From a virus (Duplodnaviria; Caudoviricetes): a stretch of DNA of 30,244 nt. Shown here piece after piece: positions 17,318-23,626 of the stretch. The notes beneath the pieces were generated by a model. The model made no database searches. It was not told where the DNA came from and was given only the letters and a program-made list of their open reading frames with translations. How positions within the stretch are numbered: position 1 is the stretch's first letter; every line of letters starts with the position of its first letter. The stretch lies in the IMG/VR virus record IMGVR_UViG_3300016474_000557, positions 1 through 30,244 of that record. One strand, written 5' to 3'. The position numbers were made by a program, and so were the translations under genes.

Positions 17318-17393
17318 TGGCTGCCAGAGTAGGGATCGAACCTACGACCGTCTCCTTAACAGGGAGCCGCTACTGCCTCTGAGCTACCTGGCA
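17318..17393 (-). tRNA. tRNA-Asn(GTT)
   Basis: Cloverleaf, loop CT-GTT-AA, encoded CCA. Confidence 0.9.
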
Positions 17394-17394
17394 T

Positions 17395-17466
17395 TGGTAG
17401 CGGTAAGAGGATTCGAACCTCAGCCATCATCTTTCAGAGAGATGTGTCCCGCCTTGGGATACCGCA
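17395..17466 (-). tRNA. tRNA-Gln(CTG), compact D arm
   Basis: CATCT-CT CTG AA-AGATG, TTCGAAT loop, CCA. Confidence 0.8.
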
Positions 17467-17584
17467 TCGTCTTGGCTAGCTTACCAGGCTAGCCACAGCA
17501 GTGCGCCTTGTACCCACAATGGGGGCACTTCCAACCAGTTACGTTGGGGTCATATCGCTGTTCGCAATTCTCACAATCCACGAG

Positions 17585-17656
17585 TGCCTCCCCTGGGATT
17601 CGAACCCAGACCTCTGGGCTTAAAAGGCCCGCCCTCTGCCGTTAAGTTAGAGAGGC
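17585..17656 (-). tRNA. tRNA-Lys(TTT)
   Basis: GGGC-CT TTT AA-GCCC; T arm intact. Confidence 0.88.
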
Positions 17657-17663
17657 ATTCTAG

Positions 17664-17744
17664 CACTGCGTACGGGATTCGAACCCGTAATGCATTGAGC
17701 GGTGGCTTGAAAGGCCACTGGGTCTACCGTTCCCCCAACGCAGC
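17664..17744 (-). tRNA. tRNA-Glu(TTC) with 13-nt variable region
   Basis: GTGGC-CT TTC AA-GCCAC; T arm intact. Confidence 0.8.
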
Positions 17745-17745
17745 A

Positions 17746-17822
17746 TGGCGGTGGCACGGAGAGTCGAACTCCGACTTCAACCTTGACAGGGTTGCGTGCA
17801 CAGACCAGTACACTATGTCACC
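17746..17822 (-). tRNA. tRNA-Asp(GTC)
   Basis: CAACC-CT GTC AA-GGTTG, CCA. Confidence 0.9.
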
Positions 17823-17823
17823 T

Positions 17824-17899
17824 TGGAGAGTCCTGTGAGAATTGAACTCACACTTCATCGTTTGCAGCGATGCGCCCACAGCCAGTAGACCAAGGACTC
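17824..17899 (-). tRNA. tRNA-Cys(GCA)
   Basis: CATCG-CT GCA AA-CGATG, U73, CCA. Confidence 0.9.
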
Positions 17900-17903
17900 A
17901 GAG

Positions 17904-17975
17904 TGGTACCCGAGGGTATCGAACCCCCCTATCTGCGTTTTCAGCACAGCGCTAATCCATCTCAGCTAGGGCACC
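17904..17975 (-). tRNA. tRNA-Phe(GAA)
   Basis: Loop CT-GAA-AA, cloverleaf. Confidence 0.88.
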
Positions 17976-18078
17976 ATTGGCGACACACCACCCGACGAGA
18001 GTTGCAGCTACTCACGATGTGTGTCGCAGAGAGTGTTGGGGGCCGCTTACCTCCCCATTGAATACGCTAGACACTCAG

Positions 18079-18150
18079 TCGGAAACCTGGGAGTCGAACC
18101 CAGCACCCCGGCCTTCCAAAGACCTCATGCAACCGCTACACCTGATTCCG
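18079..18150 (-). tRNA. tRNA-Pro(TGG)
   Basis: 5' CGG, loop TT-TGG-AA. Confidence 0.85.
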
Positions 18151-18247
18151 ATTGTCCCTCTGCTGTGCCTTGCGGCTAGCCTGCCTCCCCAGAGGGTCGG
18201 GGGCGGTTCGGGTTGCGACAGGACCACCACGTCCTCAACCACAGGCT

Positions 18248-18324
18248 TGGTAGATGCGGAGGGATTCGAACCCCCGACCTTGACTTTGTAAGAGTCCTGC
18301 TCTGACCAACTGAGCTACACATCC
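18248..18324 (-). tRNA. tRNA-Val(TAC)
   Basis: GACT-CT TAC AA-AGTC, CCA. Confidence 0.9.
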
Positions 18325-18764
18325 ATGTTCTTGTATCTTGCTAGAATCTCCTCTGCCCACGCCACTAGGTCTTCCGGTCGTTGACCGGCTGGCTGGAACG
18401 ACACCCACAGTTCCAAGTTCTCAGGACGATTGTCGTCCTTCACCCCGTTCTTGTGGTGCACTGTCTCTCCCGGCAGAAGAGAGCGCCCCAACACATCTTC
18501 CATGACGAGCCGGTGCTCAAGCACCTTCTTGCCGTCTCTGTTGACCTCTACGTATCCTGCCTGGTTTACCCAGCGCTGTCTGCCGGTGCCTGTTCTCGCT
18601 GCGTTAGCACAGCGAATGCAGCGGTCGTACGAAGTCAGTCGCTCTCCGCAGATCGTGCAGGGCTTCTGCTTCCATGACGCCCGACACTTCGGGCAGCACT
18701 TGTGACGACTGCTAGGGACGAACTCTCGTCTGCACCTTCCACACGTTCTAGTCTCTTCTTGCAT
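18315..18764 (-). CDS. HNH homing endonuclease (HNH_3/NUMOD-like) with N-terminal CxxC clusters
   Basis: EHRLVM...[19 protein letters not shown]; stop overlaps 5' end of tRNA-Val; GTGCTAGTAT -10 element 7 nt upstream of the ATG. Confidence 0.88.
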
Positions 18765-18790
18765 GGGAATCATACTAGCACATGTGGACG

Positions 18791-18863
18791 TGGAGTTGGG
18801 GGGAGTCGAACCCCCGAAATGCCATCTTGCAAGGATGGTGCTGTACCACTGAGCCACAACCCC
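18791..18863 (-). tRNA. tRNA-Ala(TGC)
   Basis: CCATC-CT TGC AA-GATGG; G3-U70. Confidence 0.9.
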
Positions 18864-18889
18864 TTGAGGTGCGGTGCAGACGAAAGAAG

Positions 18890-18963
18890 TGCTCTCTAAG
18901 GGATTCGAACCCTTACAACTCGGGGTTTAAGCCCGGTGCCTCTGCCGGTTGGGCTAAGAGAGC
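18890..18963 (-). tRNA. tRNA-Leu(TAA), short variable loop
   Basis: CGGG-CT TAA AC-CCCG. Confidence 0.82.
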
Positions 18964-18966
18964 AGA

Positions 18967-19041
18967 TGGAGTGTCTATCGGGATTCGAACCCGACCAGTC
19001 ACCTTGGCAAGGTGGCATGCTGCCGCTGACATCATAGACAC
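18967..19041 (-). tRNA. tRNA-Gly(GCC)
   Basis: Loop TT-GCC-AA, U73, CCA. Confidence 0.88.
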
Positions 19042-19043
19042 AT

Positions 19044-19118
19044 TGGAGCAGGTAGGGGGATTCGAACCCCCAAACTCACCTTGGAAGGGTGCTATGTTGC
19101 CGTTGACATCATACCTGC
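19044..19118 (-). tRNA. tRNA-Gly(TCC)
   Basis: Loop CT-TCC-AA, U73, CCA. Confidence 0.9.
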
Positions 19119-19196
19119 ATTGGGAGGACCGGGCCTTGCTAGCTTTGCCCGCTGGCGCTTCTCGTCCAGCATGCTCACGTCTGAGCTTTCCTCCAG

Positions 19197-19270
19197 TACC
19201 TGCTGCGGGAATTGAACCCACCTTGAACTCGTTATCAGCGAGCCGTTCACAACCAGTGAACCTAACAGGC
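19197..19270 (-). tRNA. tRNA-Ile(GAT)
   Basis: CTCG-CT GAT AA-CGAG. Confidence 0.85.
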
Positions 19271-19384
19271 AAGACTGTTGGGGGGCCGTACGATTGCCGT
19301 ACGATCATTAGCCCTTCCACCCTCAGGTCCCCCGGTGCTTCTGTAGGGATTCGAACCGAACCCTGAACAGTGTGTGCTATAATG

Positions 19385-19458
19385 TACCTCTGGTGGGATT
19401 CGAACCCACATCGTCCATTACGGTTACTCTGATTAGAAGGCAGGTCCGGTACAGAGGT
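19385..19458 (-). ncRNA. D-armless tRNA-like RNA (loop CTTCTAA; TCT or CTA)
   Basis: Perfect 7-bp acceptor stem and T arm, no D hairpin, long segment 3' of the anticodon-like arm. Confidence 0.65.
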
Positions 19459-19992
19459 ATGAACAGTTGCTTGAATTGTGAAACGCCTACCACCAATCCC
19501 AAGTTCTGCGGAAGGGGATGCGCCACGTCCTACAACAACAAGGTCTCTCCGAAGCGGACGCTTTCTGGAAAGAGCAAGTGCAAGGCGTGTGACGTTCCAA
19601 TTCCAGTGGGATACCACTACTGCGACGAGCACCGGGGCGCTCACGCAGGTCGTGTCGATTGGACCGCTCGTACAAAGGGCGATTACAAGAAGGCCAACGC
19701 CAATCAAGGCAAGTGGCCGTACGCCCGCCGACTCTCACGTCAAGCGTACCTCGCTTCCGGTCGCCCTCGCTGCTGTGCGGTGTGCGGATACGACAAGCAC
19801 TTTCAGGTCTGCCACATCCGTGACTGTAGCTCGTTCCCTGACTCTGCAACTATCGCAGAGATCAACGCACTGGACAACCTCGTTGCGTTGTGCCCCAATC
19901 ATCACTGGGAGTTTGACAAGATGGGGGCGCACGCTTTGGGAATTGTGCCCCCCGTTGTTGGCAAGGCAAAGGTTGGCGTGTCGTTCAGCTAG
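19459..19992 (+). CDS. HNH endonuclease, antisense to the tRNA array
   Basis: CAVCG...CHI...NLVALCPNHHWEFD; N-terminal CxxC..FC...C; GTGCTATAAT at 19374-19383. Confidence 0.85.
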   Translation: MNSCLNCETPTTNPKFCGRGCATSYNNKVSPKRTLSGKSKCKACDVPIPVGYHYCDEHRGAHAGRVDWTARTKGDYKKANANQGKWPYARRLSRQAYLASGRPRCCAVCGYDKHFQVCHIRDCSSFPDSATIAEINALDNLVALCPNHHWEFDKMGAHALGIVPPVVGKAKVGVSFS

Positions 19993-20070
19993 GAGTCCAC
20001 TCCCAGAAGCACCGACTGTGTCCATCACTAGGGGCATTGACTCTGTTACTAGAACGTCCCAGGTTCCATC

Positions 20071-20140
20071 GCCTATCGGGGGAGTCGAACCCCTCCTTCC
20101 TGCTTTGCGGCAGGCGTGCGTACCCTCACACTCTCCAGGT
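20071..20140 (-). pseudogene. Degenerate tRNA-like element (6-nt loop CGCAAA)
   Basis: T arm and CCTGC/GCAGG stem present; acceptor stem poorly paired. Confidence 0.5.
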
Positions 20141-20173
20141 TATCGATGGGGGCATCTGCATTCGCAGAGTCGG

Positions 20174-20247
20174 TGTTCCAGGTAGGATTCGAACCTACAA
20201 CATCCAGGCTCTCATCCTGGCACCTCTGCCGATTGGGTCACTGGAAC
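20174..20247 (-). tRNA. tRNA-Leu(GAG), short variable loop
   Basis: CCAGG-AT GAG AG-CCTGG. Confidence 0.85.
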
Positions 20248-20253
20248 ATAGGT

Positions 20254-20404
20254 GGTGGTGGGGTACTGTCACATCGCCAGCGCCCACACACGCCCTTCAA
20301 CCTCTATACGAGATAGAAGCTCAAGGCGGCGTGTGGACACCCGTAAACTCGGGCCTGCATAGCCGTAGCTATTGGAGCCTTTGCAGACGTATTCCCCCAC
20401 CACC
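20254..20404 (-). ncRNA. Structured RNA, GAAUACG/CAGUA family copy 1
   Basis: 10-bp terminal stem GGTGGTGGGG/CCCCACCACC flanking GAATAC-GTC...GAC-AGTA. Confidence 0.6.
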
Positions 20405-20407
20405 AGA

Positions 20408-20484
20408 TGGGGTGACCGGCCAGAGTCGAACTGGCTAACGAGACGGTTCACAGCCGCCCCTCCGCACCGATTGGATTCGGCCAC
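20408..20484 (-). tRNA. tRNA-His(GTG)
   Basis: Loop CT-GTG-AA, C73, CCA. Confidence 0.88.
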
Positions 20485-20486
20485 AG

Positions 20487-20570
20487 CGGAGAGTAGAGGA
20501 GTCGAACCTCACACCTTGCGATGCTCACATGTTTCCAGCATGGACCCCCGCCACCGGGGGATTGCTCTCC
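20487..20570 (-). tRNA. tRNA-Ser(GGA)
   Basis: CATG-CT GGA AA-CATG, long variable arm, G73. Confidence 0.85.
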
Positions 20571-20573
20571 ATT

Positions 20574-20732
20574 TGACAGCTACTGGAACCAGCATTCCGT
20601 GGGTGGTCGCTTAAGGGGCGACTCCCACCCAGCCATCCCGTGTGCGGCGGCTGTGCACAGCCATGTGGGGTCCTCTTGCCTGTATGCGGACAATCCTCTG
20701 CCGCCCATTGAGGGCATCCGTATTCACTGTCA
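20574..20732 (-). ncRNA. Structured RNA, GAAUACG/CAGUA family copy 2
   Basis: TGACAGT-GAATAC-GGA...TCC-AGTA-GCTGTCA. Confidence 0.6.
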
Positions 20733-20733
20733 G

Positions 20734-20806
20734 AGCCACGGGTGAGATTCGAACTCACTGCTTCATCGTTACGAGCGATGCGCCCCTCCTAAGGAGCCTC
20801 CCTGGC
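20734..20806 (-). tRNA. tRNA-Thr(CGT)
   Basis: CATCG-CT CGT AA-CGATG. Confidence 0.82.
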
Positions 20807-20810
20807 ATGT

Positions 20811-20936
20811 TGAGTAGCTACTGGACCTCCTGTAGCTGCACAGGGGATCGTCCCCCGCCGCCCTTGGTCAGTCTCCGTGGGCACGGTGTGTAGCAATCCA
20901 CACCTGAACCTACAAAGCATCCGTATTCACTACTCA
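20811..20936 (-). ncRNA. Structured RNA, GAAUACG/CAGUA family copy 3
   Basis: TGAGTAGT-GAATAC-GGA...TCC-AGTA-GCTACTCA. Confidence 0.6.
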
Positions 20937-20937
20937 G

Positions 20938-21010
20938 AGCTAGACGAGGGATTCGAACCCTCTACCTTAGTCTTACCATGACTATGCACATCCTAATGTG
21001 CTTCTCTAGC
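20938..21010 (-). tRNA. tRNA-Thr(GGT)
   Basis: TAGTC-AT GGT AA-GACTA. Confidence 0.87.
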
Positions 21011-21012
21011 AT

Positions 21013-21088
21013 TGGGGCCGGGGGCGGGATTCGAACCCGCTTACTCCGCTTTACAAGAGCGGCACTCGTCCTAACGAGCATCACCGGC
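21013..21088 (-). tRNA. tRNA-Thr(TGT)
   Basis: CCGCT-CT TGT AA-AGCGG, CCA. Confidence 0.9.
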
Positions 21089-21090
21089 AA

Positions 21091-21170
21091 TGGTAGGGGG
21101 GCACGGAGTCGAACCGCAGTGGCCTCAGCTTCAAAGGCTGGTGGGGGCACCGGCCCCCCGCTACTCCCCA
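21091..21170 (-). tRNA. tRNA-Gln(TTG)
   Basis: CAGC-CT TTG AA-GCTG, CCA; G-rich enlarged D arm. Confidence 0.8.
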
Positions 21171-21171
21171 G

Positions 21172-21244
21172 TACTCCGTACGGGATTCGAACCCGTACTC
21201 TCAGCCTTGAGAGGGCTGCGTGTTGCCAATTACACCAACGGAGC
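21172..21244 (-). tRNA. tRNA-Glu(CTC)
   Basis: CAGCC-CT CTC AA-GGCTG. Confidence 0.9.
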
Positions 21245-21245
21245 A

Positions 21246-21315
21246 TGGCGCTTCTGGAAGGATTCGAACCTTCTAGGTGTCTTTAGGAGAGACGCCGCCA
21301 TCCTATGGCAGAAGC
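21246..21315 (-). tRNA. tRNA-Arg(CCT), compact D arm
   Basis: GTCT-CT CCT AA-AGAC, perfect acceptor and T stems, CCA. Confidence 0.78.
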
Positions 21316-21394
21316 ATCGAAGCATCCCTATCCCCGGTATGCGGGGGCCGCACTGGGTGGTCATCCCTGTACGGTGCTGACGAAGCCTTAGGAT

Positions 21395-21470
21395 TGGTAC
21401 TCCCCTGGGGATTCGAACCCCAACCACACAGGGTAAGAGCCTGGGATGCCGACCGTAACACCTGAGGAGC
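21395..21470 (-). tRNA. tRNA-Lys(CTT)
   Basis: CAGG-CT CTT AC-CCTG, CCA. Confidence 0.87.
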
Positions 21471-21475
21471 ATGAG

Positions 21476-21559
21476 TGGGAGCAGAGGGAATCGAACCCCC
21501 GAAGTCCGAAGACACCTGTTTTACAGACAGGTTGCAACTAACCAACAGTGCTTGCGCCC
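21476..21559 (-). tRNA. tRNA-Tyr(GTA)
   Basis: CCTGT-CT GTA AA-ACAGG, variable arm GTC-TTCG-GAC. Confidence 0.9.
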
Positions 21560-21628
21560 ATAGTGGGGTGTTGAGGCGACAGAACGCCTCACTTAGTGTC
21601 AGCTTCTCTGCACTGACAACACCTCCAG

Positions 21629-21712
21629 CGGAAGGTACAGGAGTCGAACCTGATCCTTTGACAGACGCACTCGTTAGCAGCGAGGCCCCCCACCTCTGGG
21701 GGATTGCCTTCC
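21629..21712 (-). tRNA. tRNA-Ser(GCT)
   Basis: CTCG-CT GCT AA-CGAG, long variable arm, G73. Confidence 0.87.
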
Positions 21713-21715
21713 ATA

Positions 21716-21967
21716 TAGCAGGGCGGGCGGGAGGATTACTGTATACCTCCAACACAGGGTAGCTCGTACAGTTTCCGATGTATGACCTGTGTCCCTCGGT
21801 GATGCCGCTAAGCCTGTGACCGTACTAGGTTGCTACCCGTTCTGGACCCTCTCAGCACTTGCCGTTGAGGGCTGTTCACTCACCAATGCCGATGGCCCCC
21901 AGTTGCTACACCAGGACCGTTTCCGGCACGCCCAACCACTTCAACCGTCGTCTCCGTGGTCCTGCTA
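21716..21967 (-). ncRNA. Unidentified ~250-nt structured RNA between tRNAs
   Basis: Paired termini TAGCAGG/CCTGCTA and several internal hairpins; no credible ORF. Confidence 0.5.
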
Positions 21968-21968
21968 G

Positions 21969-22041
21969 TACCTGCTGAGGGAGTCGAACCCCCGGCCAAC
22001 ACGTTCGTAGCGTGCTGCTCTGTCCTCTGAGCTAAGCAGGT
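21969..22041 (-). tRNA. tRNA-Arg(ACG)
   Basis: CACG-CT ACG AA-CGTG. Confidence 0.9.
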
Positions 22042-22589
22042 ATGTGGTAGTTCACGTTGGGGGGCCGCTGCTATTCCAGCGCCTCTGTTCACCACTACGT
22101 GTTCTATGAGGGTAGCACTACCATCCCCCGTACCTAGCTGAGCGTGCAGCTAGGACACCCTTCCGTCAAGACACGTAAGGCCACGTCGGTCCTGGGAACT
22201 ACGCCCCCAGGTTGGCTGATCTTGTGTGAATACAAGGGGGAGACCCACGTACCCCAGGTGTTGTATCCAGGTTGGCCGGAAGACCCTTTGATCGCACCGA
22301 CAGCACCCCTGAGCGAGCACCTGTGCTCGTGGGACGTGTTAGGGAACAGTCTCACTTCCCCTCGCTCACAGTCCCGGTAGACGATTTGACCCACCTGCCG
22401 TCCCTAATCAGCGCATCGTCGGGAGTAATGGAGGGGGCGGCGGCAGGACTTCCCGTCCCTACGAGGTCCTCCCATTAGCTCGGACCCGCCCCCTCAGAAC
22501 CGTGTGGGGACCATTCCTTCATGCCACCACCCCGAAAGGGGTGGCGAATGGCCCTGCCGTGCATAGCAGGCTCTTCGCCCCACACTCCG

Positions 22590-22665
22590 TAGCGCCCGTG
22601 GGATTCGAACCCACACTGTACTGGTTCTAAGCCAGTCGCCTCCTGCCGAATTGGGCTAGAGCGCC
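22590..22665 (-). tRNA. tRNA-Leu(TAG), short variable loop
   Basis: ACTGG-CT TAG AA-CCAGT. Confidence 0.88.
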
Positions 22666-22851
22666 ATGTGACGATTACGGCACAGAGGTAATGTAAAGCC
22701 TTCTGTGTAGCCCGCTTATGAGCGTCCATCGTCATCGCCCACCAGGTGTACCCCTGGTCACTCTCTAGTAAAGTATCAAAGTGTTTGGGGTGTGAGATGC
22801 TATCCCGTCGCCCCGGTAAGCACTGCCCTCCGCTAAGCGGTCAGACAGTAG

Positions 22852-22925
22852 TAGCCCTCCTGGGATTCGAACCCAGACCATCTCCGTGTTGAGCGGAGCG
22901 CCTCTGCCAGTTGGACTAGAGGGCC
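22852..22925 (-). tRNA. tRNA-Leu(CAA), short variable loop
   Basis: CTCCG-CT CAA CA-CGGAG. Confidence 0.87.
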
Positions 22926-23134
22926 ACGACGCTTTGGGTTACCAGCCCCGTGAGACGATGCGTCTGCCGTCACCTTCCACATAACGATGGTGGTCGCTCC
23001 ACGTCTGGCTAAGGCGTTCCAGCACCGTCAACCGCTACTTCCCTTTAGCTTCGTGGTCTAGGCCTAGCTCACGAATCGGCTGGAGCCGTTTGACATGCAC
23101 TCCAGTTCCTATGGGGTTGGTAGCCCCTTAGAGG

Positions 23135-23204
23135 AGGCGGGTGTCGGAGTTGAACCGGACTAAGCCTGGCTTATGAGACCTGGCCCCTAACCCTAGGACC
23201 CGCA
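23135..23204 (-). tRNA. tRNA-Met(CAT)-like, compact D arm, 1:72 mismatch
   Basis: Loop CT-CAT-AA, T loop TTCAACT; could be initiator-like or Ile2. Confidence 0.68.
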
Positions 23205-23205
23205 G

Positions 23206-23277
23206 CACCGACCGTAGGATTCGAACCCACATCGAACGGTTTTGGAGACCGTTGCCTTACCATTAGACCAGATCGGT
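23206..23277 (-). tRNA. tRNA-Trp(CCA)
   Basis: ACGGT-CT CCA AA-ACCGT, G73. Confidence 0.9.
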
Positions 23278-23410
23278 ATGTGCCTGTCTTTCCAGGCTGT
23301 CAGGCGGATTACCGCCATTTAGAGTTTGCCTTCACCCACGTAGCTACGAACCGCTCTCAGCGGTCCCTATTGGAACCACCCGTATGAGAGCCGGGTGTCA
23401 ATCGTAATAG

Positions 23411-23488
23411 TGGAGCCGCCGAGATTCGAACTCGGGTTCCGCAGGTGCTCTTGCAAGCCTTTCCTCCGGTCGATGCCTTATCGGCCCC
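23411..23488 (-). ncRNA. Mini-tmRNA (tRNA-like domain only)
   Basis: GGGGCCG-ATAAGGCATCGAC...GAAC-CCGAG-TTCGAAT-CTCGG-CGGCTCC-A; G3-U70; stemless D loop; no mRNA-like domain. Confidence 0.72.
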
Positions 23489-23504
23489 ATTCGGTTGTAG
23501 TAGT

Positions 23505-23533
23505 ACCATATCAGGTAGTTGCTACCTTGTCAA
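23505..23533 (-). promoter_or_regulatory. Promoter driving the RNA array, with palindromic spacer
   Basis: TTGACA-17 bp-TATGGT with TG extension; spacer AGGTAG-CAA-CTACCT. Confidence 0.72.
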
Positions 23534-23542
23534 GTACCTTTG

Positions 23543-23626
23543 CGGAAGGTAGAGGAGTCGAACCCCTGGCCACAACCAGCGTGTCGGTTTTCAAGACCGA
23601 TTGCCCCCCACGGAGCGCTGCCTTCC
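23543..23626 (-). tRNA. tRNA-Ser(TGA)
   Basis: TCGGT-CT TGA AA-ACCGA, long variable arm, G73. Confidence 0.88.

Follow-up and report, generated by a model that had tools for sequence, protein, structure and literature searches.

The window analyzed here is the whole 30,244-nt stretch of DNA, a linear virus record that is ~31% complete. Terminase, portal, and capsid genes are present, and the capsid protein is 58 to 59% identical to those of the Streptomyces phages LuckySocke, Alone3, pSt2308, BRock, and GiJojo; the host of the phage is probably an actinobacterium. On the minus strand between positions 2175 and 12152, the genes for terminase, phosphoesterase, portal, probable scaffold, and major capsid follow the order seen in LuckySocke and BRock. 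A phage tRNA array lies on the same strand, and within it is a short tmRNA-like gene. The features of this region are listed here.

17318..23626, minus strand: phage tRNA array, 29 ARAGORN genes (ARAGORN, Rfam)
18790-18863, minus strand: tRNA-Ala(UGC) (ARAGORN)
23411..23488, minus strand: mini-tmRNA consisting of a tRNA-like domain (TLD) only, without a coding sequence (CDS-less) (RF00023 versus RF00005 scores, fold)
23505..23533, minus strand: sigma-70-type promoter-like site (10/12 matches, extended -10, 17-nt spacer)
23542..23626, minus strand: tRNA-Ser(UGA), the true first gene of the array (ARAGORN)

The minus-strand sequence and coordinates of the 78-nt element, 23411 to 23488, are exactly those of the original prediction, with G1 at position 23488 and the discriminator A at position 23411. 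The Rfam tmRNA model (RF00023; gathering cutoff, 47 bits) matched positions 23408 to 23488 at 49.5 bits (E value of 7.6e-17 over the whole window), whereas the tRNA model (RF00005) gave 18.2 bits, below its cutoff of 29. In the RF00023 alignment, both ends of the model were matched and 19 nt stood in for 312 internal model positions; pseudoknots, tag reading frame, and stop codon were absent, as were a D stem and a 5-bp anticodon stem with a 7-nt loop. These results bear out the proposal of a tmRNA tRNA-like domain lacking the mRNA domain, and the element does not score better as an ordinary tRNA-Ala. ARAGORN called no gene at 23411 to 23488, even with relaxed tRNA thresholds. None of 300 doublet-shuffled versions of the window contained the defining pattern; the folding z-score (-1.52) is weak alone, since 15 of 200 shuffles folded equally well. 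Judged by model scores and predicted fold, the 78-nt element is a real tmRNA gene reduced to its tRNA-like domain.

The predicted fold comprises a 7-bp acceptor stem with the alanine determinants G3-U70 and A73, a 12-nt unpaired D loop, and a six-pair helix with one G.G mismatch. It further includes an A-rich loop of four bases, a GCAA tetraloop closed by a 4-bp stem, a linker of 3 nt, and the T arm. Helix 2a, the A-rich loop, and the hairpin occupy the place of the pseudoknot/ORF ring. The individual parts are as follows.

23482..23488, minus strand: 5' acceptor strand, containing G3 (7/7 pairs with 23412-23418)
23469..23481, minus strand: stemless D loop with GG and the UCGAC motif (no stem predicted)
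23439..23469, minus strand: helix 2a (6 pairs, one G.G mismatch) and cap (fold, family covariation, compensatory changes in a relative)
23459-23462, minus strand: A-rich internal loop within the helix 2 region (fold)
23447-23458, minus strand: 4-bp hairpin with GCAA tetraloop (fold)
23436..23438, minus strand: 3-nt linker AAC (family consensus GAC; middle A kept)
23419..23435, minus strand: T arm, 5 bp with a 7-nt loop (fold; two compensatory pair changes in the relative)
23411..23418, minus strand: 3' acceptor strand with U70 and discriminator A73 (fold, family conservation)

The trinucleotide directly 3' of the discriminator A is CTA (23408-23410); CCA is not encoded and would therefore need to be added after trimming. 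In E. coli tmRNA, U17, C18, G19, and A334 are described as SmpB contacts (PMC8363625), and we infer that the D-loop UCGAC motif corresponds to U17, C18, and G19 and the middle A of the linker to A334. The window copy is off consensus at two points, namely, the AAC linker, found in 3 of 130 family members, and the G.G mismatch in helix 2a. The ~90 nt immediately 3' of the element (23322-23410, minus strand) are conserved in a related phage and are predicted to fold as a branched hairpin.

Contigs of this related phage, which is ~88% identical, were seen in two RNA runs from a single sludge sample. In these two runs, 5 to 6% of the window's words were present and contigs of the relative covered the conserved RNA genes; such contigs report conservation rather than transcription, and the stretches they leave uncovered are uninformative. 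The relative shows two compensatory changes in the T stem and one in helix 2a. At the site of the window's G.G mismatch its base is paired, its linker is the consensus one, and its cap hairpin differs by two deletions and two substitutions. Its contig ends near the predicted start site, which may be a mere graph break, and the -35 hexamer of the window promoter recurs in the loose end of the contig.

The promoter-like site lies 17 nt upstream of the mini-tmRNA, and one such site was found where 0.5 was expected. The element had been taken to be the first RNA after the array promoter; it is indeed the first after this internal promoter, but tRNA-Ser(UGA) lies upstream of that promoter and heads the array, so the mini-tmRNA is not the first RNA of the array. 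Across the family, a promoter of its own does not emerge as a trait (8 of 142 elements with a site upstream versus 9 downstream; shuffles gave a mean of 3.8 and a maximum of 8). A candidate TrcR-like box in the window's own promoters amounted to a single GTAGTA hexamer and was dropped. Neither smpB (tblastn; best E value, 6.5) nor a second tmRNA-like gene was found in the window.

Several other RNA-like stretches were seen on the minus strand of the array. Positions 21720-21873, inside the array, gave a weak match to the manA RNA (29.2 bits, E value of 1.4e-4, cutoff of 55.2). At positions 22042-22430, where no tRNA was called, a strong fold is predicted, and the part at 22190-22429 is conserved in the related phage contig, at a depth of ~70 in the RNA runs. 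Next to it, at 22430-22494, a 65-nt element is closed by a G/C-rich stem and resembles a tRNA at its 3' end; it lacks a T arm and has no Rfam match. Four tRNA-like genes were missed by ARAGORN: those at 21016-21088 and 19385-19458 were called as tRNA-like by Rfam, and those at 23119-23202 and 21248-21320 were read by eye as having CAU and CCU anticodons, respectively.

We then considered the element as a member of a family. An IMG/VR scan with a pattern allowing a 20- to 50-nt gap gave an estimated ~520 viral stretches, of which 120 were fetched. Among 101 unique sequences (those fetched plus the phage DS6A and window copies), all seven acceptor pairs formed in 100 and all five T-stem pairs in 101; 63 were 77 to 80 nt long, and a minor class measured 62 to 65 nt. 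Gaps of 51 to 81 nt yielded only 30 stretches, compared to the ~520 at 20 to 50 nt, and mini-tmRNA lengths thus form a discrete size class. A further minor class is longer (92 to 120 nt; L383-L412), with the A-rich loop and short hairpin tipping a longer or branched arm. Full-length tmRNAs also occur in phages, with ~380 stretches at gaps of 270 to 300 nt, which is part of the full-length range only; ARAGORN called a tmRNA in 95 of 105 parsed full-length viral records. Three ARAGORN "full tmRNA" calls at viral loci were spurious extensions of minis and were set aside.

Conservation was also assessed with patterns that left out the parts in question. With the acceptor omitted, 98 of 104 unique matches were well formed and 6 were dropped; G1-C72, G2-C71, G3-U70, and A73 were present in 98/98, and acceptor pairs 4 to 6 covaried. 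When neither the D loop nor the acceptor was specified, in a scan covering one cap subfamily, 90 of 92 sequences passed; G3-U70 and A73 were present in 89 of these, an in-register G19 equivalent in 84, and the middle A of the linker in 86. The six helix 2a positions were paired in 102 to 128 of 130 main-class sequences, versus shuffle maxima of 65 to 80; the 130 include two offset duplicates, and the shuffles ignore relatedness. Pairs were counted from fixed anchors, and no counts were taken from MAFFT alignments, in which the stems were misaligned. An inner hairpin of at least 3 bp was found in 111 of the 130. The A-rich cap motif may derive from the loop after helix 2a or from pseudoknot 1.

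A tRNA was found within the fetched 300 to 600 nt for 23 of 142 viral elements and within 2.5 kb for 15 of 41, indicating that most viral mini-tmRNAs stand outside arrays. LuckySocke, GiJojo, and pSt2308 carry a mini-tmRNA at which no RNA is annotated, and in the complete genomes of LuckySocke, BRock, and DS6A it is the sole tmRNA-like gene by RF00023. Pfam found smpB in 0 of 5 phage records, and the gene is absent from LuckySocke, BRock, and DS6A. Streptomyces phage Riptide has a variant mini (L380 2501-2577) with an altered D-loop motif and one T-stem mismatch, and it also has a compact full tmRNA (W03 94862-95130) with the tag ANSKFAFALAA. Pfam scans of neighbors, restricted to the largest ORFs, revealed no recurring protein partner, release factor, or Pth among 118 proteins from 41 viral loci or 140 proteins from 27 genome loci, and smpB lay beside just one of these 41 viral and 27 genome loci. 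A 70-nt mini (L146 3001-3070) lies ~570 nt from smpB and is the only tmRNA match in a 0.5-Mb Saccharibacteria MAG; an assembly gap is close by, and the match represents a lone CDS-less tmRNA or else an artifact.

Among 185,579 species genomes, ~130 stretches matched the first pattern, an unfiltered estimate that holds false or doubtful rows such as poorly paired Planctomycetota matches and L185, a genome match that resembles a collapsed ordinary tmRNA. By record title, the 120 stretches fetched included 45 from cyanobacteria and 22 from Poribacteria; many of the other genome matches sit among phage genes, and some are false or collapsed. Full-length tmRNA was also present in 5/5 and 3/5 of the genomes checked. 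A short match occurred in 19 of 121 Poribacteria genomes, 17 of which also have a full-length tmRNA. Poribacteria minis (L122, L166, L172, and others) are 82 to 85 nt long, with a longer cap hairpin and a promoter-like site of their own, and at each of the 4 loci scanned a gene for a pyridoxal-dependent decarboxylase adjoins the mini.

In cyanobacteria, a cap-specific pattern matched 65 of 301 Nostocaceae genomes, while the reversed control gave 0 matches. The TrcR box, taken from PMC10272220, was present no more than 250 nt upstream of the element at 37 of 45 cyanobacterial loci, compared to 4 of 435 control windows. At 23 Nostocales loci the element was 96% identical, versus 67% and 59% for flanks of equal length; the cyanobacterial loci represent one related lineage and are not independent. 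At most one ARAGORN tRNA, usually a remnant, was found nearby in 25 of 28 loci. A tRNA-like remnant recurs ~200 nt downstream of the cyanobacterial mini (L127, L130, L148, and others) and was called tRNA-Pyl(CUA) by ARAGORN in 15 of 28 loci; it may be an array gene that has decayed or an RNA with an amber anticodon.

A copy with 7/7 acceptor pairs is also held by the trn operon of the Anabaena PCC 7120 delta plasmid, between tRNA-Glu(UUC) and tRNA-Tyr:

NC_003273 (pCC7120delta), ~51736-51819 (L377 3502-3585), minus strand: PCC 7120 mini-tmRNA (RF00023, 31.9 bits, E value of 1.8e-10)

This operon is reported to be induced 100- to 1,000-fold by ribosome antibiotics and to aid survival, and 26 genes were counted in it, three of them undetected (PMC8421152). 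Neither tmRNA nor ssrA is mentioned in the main text of PMC8421152 or the part of its supplement that was examined, and tmRNA is unmentioned in the main text of either trn operon paper. We arrived at 26 tRNA-like genes leaving the mini aside (24 by ARAGORN, one by Rfam, and one Ile-like by eye), and the PCC 7120 mini-tmRNA is therefore probably a 27th, unlisted gene of the operon.

What might such an RNA do? We propose, with a probability of about one-half, that the charged, SmpB-bound RNA rescues stalled chains or tails them with alanine without adding an ssrA tag. The mini-tmRNA would be transcribed from the adjacent promoter, trimmed, given CCA, and charged with alanine by the host AlaRS. 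With SmpB and EF-Tu it would enter the A site of ribosomes stuck on broken mRNAs; the nascent chain would move to it by peptidyl transfer, and translocation would push out the mRNA, with no ssrA tag added. As the RNA brings no message, translocation would leave the next A site unoccupied, and completion would fall to a second charged copy, to the full tmRNA of the host, or to some other release factor; repeated charged copies would add one more alanine per round, producing an alanine tail. The release step is the weakest link of this mechanism. The net effect would likely be extra rescue capacity without an mRNA domain that toxin RNases could cut, and less ssrA tagging would be expected because SmpB would be shared with the mini-tmRNA.

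The case for such rescue begins with the family-wide combination of TLD anatomy, no ORF, invariant alanine identity, and conserved bases at the putative SmpB contacts. A TLD fragment with SmpB is reported to direct template-free polyalanine synthesis in vitro (Shimizu and Ueda 2006, as cited in PMC3929946), and the SmpB tail is described as ejecting truncated mRNA upon translocation (PMC8363625). We also count in its favor that cells keep the mini-tmRNA behind a TrcR stress box and inside the antibiotic-induced trn operon, that CDS-less tmRNAs persist in organelles, that phages also carry full-length tmRNAs, and that Riptide carries a full tmRNA along with its variant mini. Against it stand the only in vivo result known to us, in which endogenous tmRNA of E. 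coli is reported to be inhibited by the DS6A RNA (Mao et al. 2009, as cited in PMC11915505), and the lack of an encoded release step near the mini-tmRNA loci. Charging would help an inhibitor too, by recruiting EF-Tu; the trn phenotype has been ascribed to tRNAs; and the AAC linker and helix 2a mismatch of the window copy are off consensus.

That in vivo result suggests the principal rival, a competitive inhibitor or sponge, which would bind SmpB (and EF-Tu when charged) or park on stalled ribosomes and halt host trans-translation; phage or stress-made proteins would be spared ssrA tagging and proteolysis, and ribosomes would not be freed. A TLD-like molecule is stated to inhibit tmRNA strongly whether chargeable or not, perhaps by titrating SmpB (PMC4131195). 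Conservation of the SmpB-contact bases fits such a role, as do the presence of the mini form only, without smpB, in LuckySocke, BRock, and DS6A and the usual presence of a full tmRNA in mini-bearing cells (5/5, 3/5, and 17/19 for Poribacteria). We nevertheless regard inhibition as a possible but doubtful explanation. Because it was reported with or without charging, a pure sponge alone fails to explain why alanine identity is invariant. Moreover, the RNA is kept by cells behind a translation-stress promoter, where blocked rescue would be expected to be harmful; Riptide has both forms; and reduced tagging is equally predicted by rescue. What separates the two mechanisms is the freeing of ribosomes and the need for charging. 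Both were suggested in the original prediction (as an SmpB decoy and a tag-less rescue RNA), and both remain live. A role in counterdefense strikes us as improbable. Here the RNA would soak up defense proteins or nucleases that recognize tmRNA or tRNA, such as the predicted SmpB-like domains of CoCoNuT systems. Tm­RNA-binding SPB domains have been predicted in CoCoNuT helicases (PMC11090510), and viral contigs hold far more of the elements (~520 stretches) than species genomes do (~130); however, the SPB-tmRNA link is itself a prediction, and the stress-regulated chromosomal copies would be left unexplained.

Other readings question whether the element is a finished tmRNA-like gene at all. It could supply only the acceptor half to a two-piece tmRNA, be a remnant in decay, or be a full tmRNA that collapsed in assembly, and the ~31% completeness of the contig, the resemblance of the L185 match to a collapsed ordinary tmRNA, and the two nonconsensus positions of the window copy would all accommodate this. 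We consider it very improbable, as the acceptor strands are in standard order, helix 2 is closed by its own hairpin, helix 2a covaries, the lengths fall into a discrete class (~520 versus 30 stretches), and complete related isolates carry the short form as their only tmRNA-like gene. The permuted model RF04321 scored no more than 18.3 bits (cutoff, 47), in a partial match to the T arm only, and the separate coding piece that a two-piece tmRNA would call for was not found in this incomplete contig. A low-threshold ARAGORN search for such a partner gave 117 noise calls, which were discarded. Hardly credible, finally, is the idea of a tmRNA/tRNA-Ala chimera that decodes GCA codons, or of an odd tRNA-Ala. 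It arose from the CTTGCAA in the cap, which had been read as an Ala(TGC) anticodon loop, and the separate tRNA-Ala(UGC) noted along with it does exist at 18790-18863; a 9-nt word is common to the element and the anticodon arm of that tRNA. As a 7-nt loop, though, CTTGCAA is flanked by 0/5 stem pairs and folds instead as the 4-bp hairpin with the GCAA tetraloop, and it is therefore not an anticodon loop. There is no D stem, the RF00005 score is 18.2 bits, and TTGCAA occurs in 3 of 130 family caps (the window copy counted) and is lost in the ~88% identical relative. The shared word may reflect chance or old gene conversion.

Returning to rescue by a charged mini-tmRNA, we extend it, more tentatively, to the whole family: TLD-only tmRNAs might be a large overlooked class that carries out SmpB-dependent, message-free, tag-free rescue by alanine addition on 70S ribosomes, wired into the Nostocales TrcR regulon and contributing part of the trn survival benefit. 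A curated tmRNA database is reported to list 9 entries as "standard, no CDS" and 72 as "permuted, no CDS" among 97,179 (PMC11915505), and simple patterns find hundreds of viral stretches. In the open-access literature, we found no paper on the breadth of the form in phages or on the cyanobacterial and Poribacteria copies. The window copy itself adds little beyond one more member; the further copies lie in cultured Streptomyces phages, which are the closest isolates to the window phage, and in a model cyanobacterium, and the question raised by DS6A, inhibition versus tag-less rescue, thus becomes directly testable in Streptomyces lividans with LuckySocke and in Anabaena PCC 7120, for which deletion strains and inducing conditions are available. 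If rescue is true, bacteria have an RNA-based, tag-less rescue route; if inhibition is true, an RNA inhibitor of a pathway essential to the host is widespread among phages.

Among known systems, poly-alanine tailing by RqcH/RqcP (RQC) resembles the predicted activity in yielding a template-free C-terminal alanine tail. The likeness is in how the systems would work, and there is no homology; RqcH/RqcP is described as using ordinary tRNA-Ala on the split 50S subunit (PMC8373112), whereas the mini-tmRNA would use SmpB on the 70S ribosome. Closer in form are the CDS-less tmRNAs that persist in mitochondria and some plastids, including the ~65-bp genes of Mallomonadaceae plastids; these too have a TLD and no tag frame and have been proposed to help with incomplete mRNAs (PMC11915505). 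They are organelle genes, mostly permuted, whereas the minis of phages and bacteria act as accessories beside a full tmRNA of the host. With standard tmRNA (ssrA, RF00023), the mini-tmRNA shares the G3-U70 and A73 acceptor, stemless D loop, helix 2a, linker, and T arm, and full-length viral tmRNAs also have an A-rich loop after helix 2a. Unlike standard tmRNA, the mini-tmRNA lacks pseudoknots, a resume codon, a tag ORF, and a stop codon, and it therefore cannot complete trans-translation.

The nearest known system is the TLD-only tmRNA of phage DS6A.

JN698994, 28478-28560: DS6A TLD-only tmRNA (tmRNA Website tmID 11587)

In a BLAST search against 50,697 phage records, DS6A was the best match to the window element, and at 77% its copy was the closest among the 290 short elements fetched. 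The two have the same anatomy (80 versus 78 nt), an identical acceptor stem, the same encoded 3' end, and a cap made of an A-rich loop and a short hairpin. They differ in that the DS6A copy stands alone among protein genes, whereas the window copy lies within a 29-gene tRNA array and has a strong promoter-like site upstream, a GCAA tetraloop, and an AAC linker. The original prediction treated the form as unprecedented. However, DS6A is entered as "TLD only" in PMC4131195 and its form is also described in PMC11915505; the TLD-only kind is thus already published, and the window element is a further member of it.
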